DNA of 63,840 bases, the filler included, from Folioceros fuciformis (Eukaryota), in NCBI GenBank assembly GCA_049999805.1. It is 18 parts of 18 records of this genome, joined end to end, with 100 filler letters (N's around TTAATTAATTAA, not from the genome) between each part and the next. Parts side by side here need not be neighbours in the genome. Positions count along the whole stretch, not along the records: positions 43,282 to 51,009 come from JBNGIO010006769.1; 17 more parts are not named here. One strand, written 5' to 3'. Position 1 is the first letter of the stretch, and each line of letters opens with the position of its first letter. Made by a program: the position numbers and the translations under genes. This document shows positions 45,000-50,173 of the stretch, one piece after another. The notes under the pieces were generated by a model that saw nothing but the letters and a program-made list of their open reading frames with translations, had not been told where the DNA came from and ran no database searches.

Positions 45000-45117
45000 G
45001 GCACGCTCCCTCCGCAGGTATTAACCTGTTCAGGTGCGAAGGGACTCTCTCAGCCTGTCCAAGTGCACAGCACTGGCTCACAGCCAGGCTGCAATTGGAA
45101 CAAGCACCCCCGGTGCC
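45000..45117 (-). ncRNA. TPP (thiamine pyrophosphate) riboswitch aptamer in the THIC 3'UTR
   Basis: Minus strand reads GGCAC-CGGGGGTGCTTG...CAGGCTGAGAGAGTCCCTTCGCACCTGAACAGGTTAATACCTGCGGAGGGAGC-GTGCC. It has P1 GGCAC/GTGCC, the CTGAGA motif and the P5 CAGG-TTAATA-CCTG hairpin, about 420 nt after the stop codon. Confidence 0.97.
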
Positions 45118-45537
45118 TTGTGTGATTAGCCAACTTGACCGACACGAAACAAAAGTCCATAGACACGTTCTAAAATCAAAGCTTCCAAAGATTATTACTC
45201 CTCATAGCAAATATACAGCCCTGCAATCTGACATGGATACTATCACCGGATGCAGATACGTATAACCTCATGCCAGACGCAGGGTAAAATATGAAGAGCT
45301 AGAGAAAGCTGACTATGTGCGCACACCAAAACCCGCAAGCACGGGTGAGCTGCCACAGCTCGCATGAAGGGACGTCCACTGACGTAACCTCTCTTTTGCC
45401 AACTTGCAGCTGGGGAGTTGCTGTCACCATGAGTTTCGACGTCAGTCACAACTGCACTTTGGGCAATACCAACCCCTGACAAGCCCCAGAACAAGCATAA
45501 GCCAAGAAAGTGATGGACCAACGATCCAAACCTTTCC

Positions 45538-48025
45538 TCACTTGGGCATGGATGATGTGCCACCAACTAGTCCATTGGAGATGTAGCTTTCGGGCAAGTA
45601 GATCTCTCCACCCACCTCGCCCCATTGCTCACCACTGATTGTCTTGTTGGCTGCTAGGAACTCTTCACTCATCTTTTCCATTCCACCTCTTATGGCATCA
45701 TGGGCATCACCGTAGCCATGTTCTTCGGCATACTTGCGCACGTCCTCAGTGATACTCATGGAGCAGAACTTAGGGCCGCACATGGAACAAAAGTGTGCCA
45801 CCTTCGCACCCTCTGACGGAAGAGTCTCATCATGATAGGCAAGGGCAGTGACCGGATCCAATGACAAAGCAAATTGATCTCTCCACCGGAACTCAAACCT
45901 CGCCTTGCTCAGGGCATCATCCCAAGCCTGAGCAAATGGGTGACGCTTTGCAAGATCTGCAGCATGAGCCGCAATCTTGTAAGAGATTACACCAGCCTTC
46001 ACATCATCTCGGTTAGGAAGCCCCAGATGTTCTTTGGGAGTTACATAGCAAAGCAGTGCGGTGCCAAGAGCTCCAATGTTGGCAGCACCAATAGCGGAGG
46101 TTATGTGATCATAACCAGGGGCAATGTCTGTTGTCAAGGGACCAAGAGTGTAGAAGGGGGCTTCATTGCACCAATCCAACTGTTTCTCCATGTTTTCTGG
46201 AATCTTGTGCAGAGGAATATGACCAGGTCCCTCATTCATGACCTGCACGTCCTTCTCCCAAGCTCGACGTGTAAGCTCCCCTTGTACTGCTAGCTCAGAA
46301 AACTGGGCCTGGTCATTGGCATCGTAAATAGAACCTGGCCGCAACCCATCACCAATCGAAAGAGAAATATCATACTGGTTACAAATATCCAAGATATCAT
46401 CCCAGTGAGTGTATGCAAAGTTTTCCTTGTGATGTGCCAGGCACCATTTAGCATGAATGGAACCTCCTCGAGAGACAATGCCCGTCATCCTTCGAGCTGT
46501 AAGAGGTATGAAGCGCAACAGGACTCCAGCATGAATCGTGAAGTAGTCCACTCCCTGCTCAGCTTGCTCGATGAGAGTCTCTCTGAATACTTCCCATGTC
46601 AGATTCTCGGCAACCCCGTTCACCTTTTCAAGGGCTTGATAGATGGGGACAGTCCCAACGGGAACTGCTGAGTTGCGGAGGATCCATTCCCGAGTCTCAT
46701 GGATGTGCAATCCCGTAGACAGATCCATAATGGTGTCTGCACCCCACATAGTTGCCCACTGCAGCTTCTGAACCTCTTCTTCAATCGAACTTGTGACAGC
46801 AGAGTTACCAATATTGGCGTTCACCTTCACCAGGAAGTTCCTTCCCACGATCATGGGCTCAAGCTCCAGATGCCGTTTGTTGGAGGGGATGATTGCACGA
46901 CCACGGGCTACTTCAGACCTGACAAACTCTGGGTCAAGATTTTCCCTGGCAGCACAGAACAACATTTCCTCCGTGACAACTCCTTTCTTTGCATAGTGCA
47001 TCTGGGTGAATCGGCTGTCACTTCGGGCTTCACGCTTTCGAATCCAATCTTCCCGGATCTTGGGAAGCCCTGCGAAATGACAACCAGACACTCCTGTAAG
47101 CTTCTGACCATACCTCTTAACACAAGAGGTTCCAATTCTTCCACATCCATGACGACAGCACATTCATAGGCAAGCATCGAGGTCTACCTGTCCTCGGGTC
47201 CACCTTCTGAGGGCCACTGGTGTCGTAAGTATCAAACGGCTTCTCTCCCCCTGACAAATGCACACGCCTGAACGGAACATGCAGTACAGAGCCGGTGGCC
47301 ACATGCACCACTTCCCTGTGCACCCGTTGAGGCAATACAAAGACAAAATACAATCTCAGGATTTGACACGACGAGTGAGCACAGAGAAATACAACTACCT
47401 TCCATTTATCAGCTCCACCCAGGCCCAATACACAAAAAAACGTAAACCTCTGACTACTCCATCAGCTACCGAGAAGCAGGACAGACCAATTACCGACAGC
47501 AACCCACCGTCGGACATACCTACGTTGCCACGCCACAAACATTTCATCCAGAAGCACGAGAGACGCCTCCGATCCACGCCATGCAAAGCAGCTGGACAAG
47601 CCAACTCAACAGGCCCGCCCCAACAGAGACAGCCACAATCCACCACATGCAAACCCAGCCCAGAGAACCACTCACTTGACCTCCTTGGTGCTGTTGGGGA
47701 AGCACTCCTTGAAGCTGGGAATGGGGAGAAATTCAGGCGCCTCAGGGTCGTGCGTGGGCCGGGTCCGCTGGTGCTTGGCCTTGGCATCCCCATTCCCAGG
47801 CGCAATACGCAGCGGGATCTCCTCGGCGGCGGGCGCACCCACCGTGAGCTGCGCTCGCACCCGGGCTCCCCCGGGCACCGTGGGCTTCAACTTGCAGGAC
47901 GCGGGAGCAAAGGAGGAAGCGGATGCCAGCTGCGCGGGCCCGGCCACTCCCTTTCCGCTGCAGAGCAAAGAACAGTCGAGCAGAGCAGCCATTGCGGTGG
48001 CACCGGGAGCGATGGAAAGAGCCAT
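45538..48025 (-). CDS. THIC: Phosphomethylpyrimidine synthase (HMP-P synthase), exons 48025-47676, 47315-47188, 47069-45538
   Basis: Transit peptide, [55 protein letters not shown] and Fe-S motif CSMCGPKFC. Confidence 0.98.
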
Positions 48026-48191
48026 TGCCAGGCCGCGACGAGACTGCTGAGACGAGCCGGGGCGCGACGGGAGAGTTCCACTTCACTTCACGTCACCGCA
48101 TCTCTGTGGAAAAGTGCGAGACGGGCACGGGTTTACATCTGAGGTTAAGGTGAGGCCAACTGGCTACGGTGCGCATCCAAGTACACAGTAC

Positions 48192-48860
48192 ATATATACG
48201 GAGGCAGAGGGGAACGACAAAGATACATGCCAGCCAGCTTGCCGCCTGCAAAAGTATCTCTTAGCACGCCCCTGGCATCACGCTCGTACGTCGCCTGGCA
48301 TGCAAGCCAGGTTCCACTAGTTCTTGTTCTCGATGAGATTCTATTCCCTTCCGATACTTATCCACAGCTAAAGCAGCAACGCATCAACAAGTTCATTCCA
48401 CTGGAAATCGGATGGCTGCAACCAGCAACCAGCAGTCGTTGGAACCAAACAAGTACTCTCAATCTCATTAGCGGCAATGCCTGATGAGGTTCCTCAACTT
48501 GAAGCTTTGAGGGTTTGTTCAACTGTGTCTCACTTTTGTGGTGTGTCAGCCCTGCTGCTCCAACTGTTAGAGTCAGCAAGGACATATCTCCTGAGCTTGT
48601 AAGCTGAGTTTGGACATGGCTACAGTCCAGCATTGAAGCTTATGCTCCTGCCTTGGAAGGGGTAGGGTCAGTTCGAAAGATGCACTTTGTGAGGCTGGGA
48701 AAGCAGATAAAGCAAAACGTGGCTAGCAGCAGCTAAGAGAGGAATCCTTGGCGATCTTTAGCTGCGTCCGGTAGCGGGAAAATATCAGCAACAGGGGACG
48801 GTAGGTGGTCACTTGCGACGGGTGACGGGCGGTTCGCTGCCCTTAGCTTCTGGTATAAAT
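48192..48860. promoter_or_regulatory. Shared divergent promoter region with candidate TATA boxes (TATATA, minus strand ~48198-48193; TATAAAT, plus strand 48854-48860)
   Basis: Each TATA-like element lies about 130-170 nt upstream of its ATG (THIC and THI1). Confidence 0.55.
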
Positions 48861-48982
48861 ACCCGGCTCTTCAAGGTACGCTGCTGTGTCGATCAGTAGC
48901 ACAATTCCCCGCCCCACCTGCTCTGCGTTCAACTTCCGTTGTCTGTTCGCGCTGTCACCCTTGCTTGTCCTTGCCCTCAGCT

Positions 48983-50173
48983 ATGGCAGCCTGCACCGCC
49001 TCCATGGCCGCCCTGAGCGGAGCCGTGGCCGTGGATCTCAAGGCAGCGTCCGGTGCTTCCAGCTTCTCTTCTGCGTCTTCGCCTCTTGCGGGAGTGAGGA
49101 TTGCGGCGGCATGCAAGGCTGATGTGACTGTCTCTCGCGCGCTGCGGGCCACTAGCGCCTCGCTGTATTCCGACTCCAAGTACGACCTCAACAACTACAA
49201 ATTCGAGCCGATCAAGGAGTCGATTGTGGCGAGAGAGATGACCCGGCGCTACATGACGGACATGATCACGCATGCCGACACGGACGTGGTGGTCGTCGGC
49301 GCCGGCTCCGCGGGCCTGTGCTGCGCCTACGAGCTGAGCAAGAATCCGAATGTGAAGGTGGCTATCGTGGAGCAGTCTGTGAGCCCCGGCGGCGGCGCCT
49401 GGCTCGGAGGACAGCTGTTCTCCGCCATGGTAGTGAGGAAGCCGGCTCACCGCTTCCTGGACGAGCTGGAGGTGGCGTACGACGAGCTGGAGAACTACGT
49501 GGTGATCAAGCACGCCGCGCTCTTCACCTCCACCGTCATGAGCAAGCTGCTGGCCAGGCCCAATGTGAAGCTCTTCAATGCTGTTGCCGCGGAGGACTTG
49601 ATCATCAAGGAAGATCGCGTCGCCGGTGTGGTTACCAATTGGGCCCTGGTGTCCATGAACCACAACACTCAGAGCTGTATGGACCCGAACGTGATGGAGG
49701 CCAAGGTGGTCGTCAGCTCGTGCGGCCACGACGGTCCCTTCGGCGCCACCGGAGTCAAGAGGTTGAAGAGCATTGGCATGATTGACAAGGTTCCCGGGAT
49801 GAAGGCCCTCGACATGAACACCGCGGAGGACGCCATCGTGCGCCACACTCGGGAAGTCGTACCAGGCATGATTGTCACCGGAATGGAGGTGGCTGAAATC
49901 GATGGATCACCTCGGATGGTAAGCAAGCTCAATCAGCCACTGCAGTTTGAATGTTTTGTTGGCCGTTCCCTGCTTCTTACGCCGTTAACGACATACTGCC
50001 TTTCACTTCAGGGCCCTACTTTTGGCGCGATGATGGTTTCTGGCCAAAAGGCTGCGCACCTCGCATTGAAGGCGTTGGGACTTCCTAACGAGATTGATGG
50101 AACTTACCGATCTGGAGTGCATCCGGAGCTTGTCCTGGCCTCTGTCGACGAGGAGACATCTGCTTCTGCTTGA
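48983..50173 (+). CDS. THI1: Thiazole synthase (THI1/THI4), exons 48983-49918 and 50012-50173
   Basis: [42 protein letters not shown], sulfur-donor Cys in QSCMDPN, and [11 protein letters not shown]. Confidence 0.98.

Follow-up and report, generated by a model that had tools for sequence, protein, structure and literature searches.

A head-to-head THIC/THI1 gene pair in a hornwort that very probably predates land plants, with a candidate shared control region

In the hornwort Folioceros fuciformis, THIC and THI1, which encode the enzymes for the pyrimidine and the thiazole half of thiamine, diverge from a 957-bp spacer on one contig. This linkage is, with high confidence, ancestral: it predates land plants and has been lost repeatedly. 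The pair lies in a stretch of 63,840 nucleotides (the window) from GenBank assembly GCA_049999805.1, in which short contigs are joined via artificial N spacers; positions 43282-51009, from record JBNGIO010006769.1, form a single gap-free contig. Both enzymes and the thiamine pyrophosphate (TPP) riboswitch of THIC are textbook knowledge. For the spacer, we lean modestly towards a model in which it serves as a control region shared by the two genes.

Gene models and Pfam agree on the layout described in the first-pass annotation, with THIC on the minus strand (ATG 48025), THI1 on the plus strand (ATG 48983), and a distance between the start codons that recomputes to the same value (Table 1). The three coding exons of THIC encode 669 amino acids with zero internal stops. 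The protein matches Pfam ThiC_Rad_SAM (E-value 1e-183) and carries the C-terminal radical S-adenosylmethionine (SAM) motif CX2CX4C at residue 587, so that domain, motif, and intact frame predict a ThiC radical-SAM hydroxymethylpyrimidine phosphate (HMP-P) synthase. THIC proteins from plants and algae share 80-91% identity with it; a quick tree leaves its position unresolved. THI1 encodes 365 amino acids that match Pfam Thi4 (E-value 2e-109). With its Cys-type active-site motif and sulfur-donor Cys232, it is predicted to be a Cys-dependent, single-turnover THI4/THI1 thiazole synthase. In the tree it stands beside liverworts (support 91/86). Past the transit peptide it equals Anthoceros agrestis AaBONN_Sc2ySwM_117.2040.1, with about nine differences inside the transit peptide, as compared by eye with the published alignment (PMC8256493), which puts the source close to Anthoceros. 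Three flanking open reading frames (ORFs) in the 7.7-kb contig have no Pfam match, leaving these two as the only pathway genes in it.

Linkage was compared across 17 named genomes in which protein look-ups and a published orthogroup table supplied locus names, and thus positions, for both genes. A further homologue search, started from algal and fern THI1 sequences in alignment, yielded no additional locus tags; Chara, Klebsormidium, Chlorokybus, Diphasiastrum, Azolla, Salvinia, and the gymnosperms, each with a position for one gene only, were left out. THIC and THI1 are linked in six of the 17. All three THIC copies of the zygnematophyte alga Spirogloea muscicola stand head to head with a THI1 across gaps of 886, 791, and 954 bp, and one of the two copies in Mesotaenium endlicherianum does so across 1325 bp (PMC13167755). 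Spacing thus ranges from 791 to 1325 bp in these algae and is near 1 kb across algae and hornworts. Marchantia polymorpha has consecutive tags, Mp5g00080/Mp5g00090 (PMC13167755). Among ferns, Ceratopteris richardii keeps both duplicates paired as neighbouring tags on chromosomes 3 and 30, Adiantum capillus-veneris has the pair 0000611/0000612 plus one THI1 without a listed partner, and in Adiantum nelumboides four of the five listed THIC copies lie 1-4 tags from a THI1 on an equal-sized contig. Because the head-to-head pair also occurs in Spirogloea and Mesotaenium, the linkage predates land plants. Of the two origins that the first-pass annotation had left open, the ancestral one is thereby borne out, whereas a lineage-specific one is rejected by the presence of the same pair in zygnematophyte algae, Marchantia, and ferns. 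In the simplest history, the pair arose once, ahead of the divergence between zygnematophytes and land plants, and was then lost several times.

Among the copies listed, at most 15 members per cluster, neighbouring THIC and THI1 genes were not seen in three Closterium strains, two Riccia species, Calypogeia, Ceratodon, Physcomitrium, Sphagnum balticum, Selaginella moellendorffii, or Arabidopsis, the last confirming that its THIC and THI1 reside on different chromosomes (2 and 5). In Riccia fluitans, two THIC copies (004719, 004722) and three THI1 copies (017417, 017420, 017470) occupy separate contigs; a THI1 might be concealed among the tags that separate the THIC duplicates. In Ceratodon, THI1 forms a tandem array on chromosome 3 with THIC on chromosome 5, and loss of linkage accompanies THI1 amplification. 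A metagenome scan returned 80 THI1 loci, 28 of them with at least 4 kb of upstream sequence (4 Sphagnum-like, 22 angiosperm-like, and 2 bacterial, many redundant). None of these 28 has THIC upstream of THI1, and the sole ThiC match across all 80 is bacterial and downstream. In the four Sphagnum-like loci, whose THI1 bears an aptamer, the 7.5-10 kb upstream are free of THIC.

The spacer was compared by aligning four coded runs to the contig, of which X2 is the same sample and X3 comes from another study; X3 is RNA by guess and is taken as such on the strength of four GT-AG joints that agree with the gene models. About half of the spacer can be aligned in related organisms, in organism B at 88-90% without gaps. 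Two conserved non-coding blocks stand out. The first aligns in organism B over 48196-48347 with 16 differences and no gaps, and the second includes an ACGT element (48717) and a 9-mer (48779-48787) that resembles an evening element. Unlike these blocks, intron 2 of THIC and a portion of its intron 1 have given way in organism C to sequence that cannot be aligned.

Head-to-head promoter pairs are by convention those with transcript starts less than 1 kb apart. Here the genes diverge on opposite strands, as in Spirogloea and Mesotaenium, and both the start-codon distance and the ends of the RNA contigs place the putative starts within that range. Towards THIC the contigs extend to 48104 and towards THI1 to 48518, which puts the beginnings of the longest forms no more than 413 bp from each other; X3 does not cover 48105-48517, a gap that is not taken as evidence on transcription starts. 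When the intergenic DNA is shuffled with dinucleotides preserved, 9 of 1000 shuffles have an outward TATA-like heptamer on each strand. Both heptamers noted in the first-pass annotation as one box per gene are present, but the assignment to THI1 is unsupported for the spliced RNA form observed. THI1 RNA extends upstream to at least 48518, and because its leader exon crosses the plus-strand box, this box is unable to start the long spliced form; a start 25-35 nt downstream of it would land within the leader intron. Contigs may drop a short 5′ tip, and those of X3 are compatible with a second, proximal, TATA-driven THI1 start. The leader exon holds three short upstream ORFs of 6, 7, and 18 codons. 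Together with the 105-nt intron, which the first-pass annotation lacks and which ends two bases 5′ of the ATG, this long leader could carry translational control.

In the model we lean towards, THIC and THI1 already stood head to head in the ancestor that land plants share with zygnematophyte algae. Hornworts, Marchantia, and leptosporangiate ferns retained the arrangement, and it was broken up separately in mosses, in some liverworts, in Selaginella, in Closterium, and in flowering plants. We infer overlapping promoters within the ~1-kb spacer that have upstream elements of light or clock type in common. Both costly enzymes would be switched on together at transcription, after which the pyrimidine branch would be trimmed post-transcriptionally through the TPP riboswitch at the 3′ end of THIC. 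At this locus, TPP feedback would act on THIC alone, the linked THI1 copy having no aptamer, and thiazole feedback would be left to a separate, aptamer-bearing second THI1 copy. The spacing of ~1 kb kept in algae and hornworts and the intergenic blocks conserved in related organisms speak for shared control. Survival of the adjacency also appears unusual: Li et al. (PMC8075897) report no identifiable ancestral collinear blocks between bryophytes and vascular plants, using a method that requires three to five anchors and that a two-gene pair would escape. Arabidopsis THIC is described as being under evening element and riboswitch control (PMC9972560), and the Arabidopsis branches as needing balance, with THI1 a single-turnover enzyme (PMC8331165, PMC9972560). 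In a Marchantia DNA affinity purification sequencing (DAP-seq) listing for HY5, peaks occur upstream of both genes, at -403 and -1075. A shared two-way promoter that balances both branches is plausible and unproven, while the earlier description of an operon-like module is too strong because the genes lie on opposite strands and have separate transcripts.

A number of observations weigh against shared control. Linkage is dispensable: in 11 of the 17 named genomes, among them those of Riccia, which is closely related to Marchantia, none of the listed copies are neighbours. It has been lost in many lineages, and its record in ferns and Marchantia rests on locus tags, with orientation there not directly seen. 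In expression data, the Mesotaenium genes both respond to light and temperature, yet fall into clusters 13 and 24 of 30, and neither Marchantia gene is in the published expression cluster lists. This comparison spans no more than four conditions, and of the two transcripts the riboswitch affects just that of THIC. Within the spacer, ACGT and GATAAG elements are not above shuffles (441/1000 and 252/1000), the evening-element-like core is marginal (31/1000, as one of five patterns tried), and there is no long inverted repeat or palindromic core, only short repeat pairs at chance level. The HY5 listing has 9,151 rows, so the two matches carry little weight, and that the two Marchantia peaks are one shared peak is our own reading. 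To these points add the unsupported TATA assignment of THI1 and one Arabidopsis test in PMC9972560, in which moiety imbalance did not explain the riboswitch-mutant phenotype.

Some of this evidence fits a linkage that is ancestral but passive. Two essential genes with independent, closely packed promoters would be difficult to separate, since any breakpoint would be confined to a few hundred bases, and the pair would decay slowly with no benefit from co-regulation. The many genomes without neighbouring copies and the separate Mesotaenium expression clusters agree with such decay, as do two Adiantum nelumboides pairs with other tags intervening (033136/033138 and 042788/042792), and the conserved spacer blocks might be two separate promoters side by side. 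Against passive linkage stand the near-1-kb spacing in algae and hornworts, the fact that both Ceratopteris duplicates and all three Spirogloea copies are still paired, and the nature of the genes themselves: they make the two halves of one molecule, and a random neighbour at the origin would be a roughly 1 in 10,000 event, as estimated from gene number. We give passive linkage appreciable weight, if less than an even chance.

A different history, in which the pair was assembled independently several times (in algae, hornworts, Marchantia, and ferns) under selection for co-regulation, would account for the patchy distribution, with Closterium, Riccia, Calypogeia, and mosses, in which no neighbouring copies were seen, interspersed among linked lineages. 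However, orientation is the same and spacing similar in algae and hornworts, and losses of adjacency should be far easier than four gains, which makes repeated assembly quite improbable.

Descent from a horizontally acquired bacterial thiamine operon is largely refuted and has only a very slight chance of being correct. Some Peregrinibacteria do combine a TPP aptamer, thi4, a thiE-like gene, and thiC (metagenome loci L068 and L083), and their Thi4 is 68% identical to the window THI1. Yet the bacterial genes lie on one strand with thiC downstream, whereas the window genes occupy opposite strands, and the bacterial ThiC is of a short, 418-residue type with 47% identity to the window THIC, compared with the far closer plant and algal proteins. 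This operon resembles the hornwort locus in bringing Thi4 and ThiC genes together with a TPP aptamer, but differs in its single strand, its 5′ aptamer, and its short ThiC, and is an analogue rather than a source.

The same scan yielded several further bacterial or bacterially labelled loci. In L068 (8120-11168) and in L083, the Peregrinibacteria aptamer, plant-like thi4, thiE-like ORF, and short thiC occur together, and L078 and L085 have a similar thi4 with no thiC in view. At 5001-5767 of L086, a plant- or fungal-like thi4 match in two pieces sits in a 6.9-Mb bacterial metagenome-assembled chromosome; an intron-like gap in it points to DNA of eukaryotic origin or to contamination. In L081, L082, L084, and L087, tiny contigs of bacterial assemblies carry plant sequences of THI1 (87-93% identity), and some cluster members are likewise bacterially named; these bacterial-labelled sequences look like plant contamination in public genomes.

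That the adjacency is an artefact of assembling a short contig has next to no probability, even though none of the seven listed pieces of X2, the run from the same sample (zero differences), crosses the spacer by itself, because one 8755-nt DNA contig of the related organism C (X7 record 19) runs in the same order from THIC through two spacer blocks into the beginning of THI1, its spacer exceeding that of the window locus by about 40 nt. Moreover, a contig of organism B links THIC exon 1 to 48831, an RNA-like contig of X3 links 48518-48875 to the THI1 coding region, and the same pair is present in the six named genomes.

The TPP aptamer of THIC is intact, as the first-pass annotation had stated. 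The Rfam match scores 59 bits against a gathering score of 54.3, folds with a z of -2.69, is sense to THIC, and lies inside the THIC contig of run X3 and is thus transcribed. In being above the gathering score, sense, downstream of the stop, and transcribed, the aptamer is placed as in plant 3′-UTR (3′ untranslated region) TPP riboswitches. In Arabidopsis, splicing of the THIC 3′ intron depends on TPP; riboswitches of this class work by masking a 5′ splice site. For the hornwort THIC, the 3′ form seen is unspliced: there is no spliced 3′ form among the listed X3 joints, and pairing of the aptamer P4-P5 strand with upstream sequence, as expected of splice-site masking, is not above shuffles (54/100). 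The spliced THIC contig runs unskipped for more than 2.2 kb beyond the stop and through the aptamer, representing either a long 3′ form or a merger with a neighbouring RNA.

No second TPP aptamer is matched in the contig even at E-values up to 10, and the linked THI1 has none within the 836 bp from its coding end to the contig end. The earlier count of one riboswitch thus holds for the THIC/THI1 locus, but not beyond it, since a separate second hornwort THI1 bears one too. This second copy (~84% DNA identity over window 49145-49919) appears in three of the four runs (X3, X5, and X7; organisms A, B, and C). Its contigs also match the aptamer 3′ half (window 44997-45057) downstream of the coding region, with opposite-strand joints from 45057 to 49905 or 49919, the orientation expected of a 3′ riboswitch. 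In A. agrestis, a second THI1 model is located on the same scaffold (PMC8256493). Record 12 of X3, with ~82% identity to window 49154-49605, is a third THI1-like contig from another paralog or another organism in the sample. The second hornwort THI1 resembles the non-seed-plant THI1 genes with their own 3′ TPP riboswitch (PMC11521341; also the Sphagnum-like and moss-like loci L001-L008, L055, and L058), in contrast to the THIC-linked copy. Of the moss-like THI1 loci scanned, nine of ten have their own aptamer and L006 has no match (16 loci submitted).

Linkage to THIC might be an alternative to a riboswitch on THI1 itself, a proposal we consider rather doubtful. The two-way promoter, surviving since before land plants, would set both thiamine branches, such that linked copies can lose the aptamer and unlinked copies keep it; flowering plants would have lost both and rebuilt coordination through separate light and clock elements. 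The comparison behind this proposal covers the linked hornwort THI1, the second hornwort THI1, and the moss-like loci.

Compared with Arabidopsis THIC (At2g29630) and THI1 (At5g54770), the hornwort locus has the same enzymes, an aptamer 3′ of THIC, none on THI1, and a Cys-type THI1, but its genes are adjacent. Head-to-head pairs of one pathway are well established in yeast, where shared elements and co-induction are proven for GAL1-GAL10 and for SNZ-SNO (vitamin B6). Like these, THIC and THI1 are unrelated enzymes of one pathway transcribed outward from less than 1 kb of DNA; unlike in yeast, shared elements and co-induction are only predicted here, and the pair spans the transition from algae to land plants. 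Plant biosynthetic gene clusters typically contain at least three genes of specialised metabolism and are young. With such clusters, and with the algal nitrate-assimilation cluster, the locus has in common that non-homologous genes of one pathway (Pfam ThiC_Rad_SAM and Thi4) are linked in a nuclear genome. It differs in having two genes in a 7.7-kb contig, serving the core cofactor thiamine, reaching from algae to ferns, and being very old. It is thus not a plant biosynthetic gene cluster, which by convention has three or more genes and a specialised, narrow-lineage role.

According to the main text of PMC11521341, embryophyte groups do not share a conserved THI1 neighbourhood; that text mentions neither a THIC neighbour nor any Marchantia, hornwort, or Ceratopteris locus, and its supplement may list the adjacency unremarked. 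Full-text literature searches aimed at the pair or the genes, with subscription papers outside their scope, did not find the THIC/THI1 pairing. The identifiers Mp5g00080/Mp5g00090 do not occur in the main texts searched, and the supplements of PMC8075897 and PMC11982790 gave no relevant matches.

Table 1. Features of the THIC/THI1 locus in window coordinates.
Feature	Position	Strand	Basis
THIC 3′ region, no skip in spliced contig	43282..45537	-	X3 record 9
TPP riboswitch aptamer RF00059, ~420 nt past THIC stop	44989..45121	-	Rfam, 59 bits, E-value 5e-09
THIC coding exon 3, radical-SAM domain, CX2CX4C, stop codon 45540-45538	45538..47069	-	gene model, Pfam
THIC intron 2, 118 nt, GT-AG	47070..47187	-	splice joint in X3
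THIC coding exon 2	47188..47315	-	X3, gene model
THIC intron 1, 360 nt, GT-AG	47316..47675	-	splice joint in X3
THIC coding exon 1, ATG 48025, putative transit-peptide-like N-terminus	47676..48025	-	gene model
THIC 5′ leader, minimum extent	48026..48104	-	spliced X3 contig (record 9)
Region between start codons, 957 bp, candidate shared control region	48026..48982	.	bridged by X7 record 19
Candidate TATA-like heptamer facing THIC	48192..48198	-	sequence pattern
Conserved non-coding block 1	48196..48404	.	aligned in organism C
Conserved non-coding block 2	48484..48831	.	organism B, 40 differences, gap-free; 48614-48831 in organism C
THI1 non-coding leader exon, as far as X3 covers	48518..48875	+	X3 record 10
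Candidate TATA-like heptamer facing THI1, within leader exon of spliced RNA	48854..48860	+	sequence pattern
THI1 5′-leader intron, 105 nt, GT-AG	48876..48980	+	X3 joint
THI1 coding exon 1, Thi4 domain, Cys232	48983..49918	+	gene model, Pfam
THI1 intron, 93 nt, in frame, GT-AG	49919..50011	+	gene model, X3 joint
THI1 coding exon 2 and stop codon; X3 contig runs on to ~50314	50012..50173	+	

Downstream of THI1, a 4498-nt RNA-like contig ends in 50285-50851 and leaves the window sequence at a probable splice site near 50851. It likely stems from a neighbouring gene that runs convergently and overlaps the 3′ end of THI1; parts of the region are conserved in organism C, and its ORFs have no Pfam match. 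Elsewhere in the window, 6059-6529 (plus strand) encodes a DYW deaminase domain with features of the hornwort GRP subgroup as described in PMC9478123, a candidate for the U-to-C editing type, and 18419-20344 (minus strand) a PLS-type pentatricopeptide repeat gene. A glutamyl-tRNA reductase exon (9376-10569, minus strand) and a legume-lectin domain gene (34053-35111, plus strand) are ordinary and lie on other contigs.

Gene order is regarded as almost wholly scrambled when bryophytes are compared with vascular plants (PMC8075897). A vitamin-synthesis gene pair that has stayed together from zygnematophyte algae through to ferns departs from this scrambling and also from the rule of mostly young, specialised clusters. 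Marchantia, in which THIC and THI1 are single neighbouring genes, offers a testable system, and the spacer may be a compact natural two-way promoter for co-expressing both enzymes.

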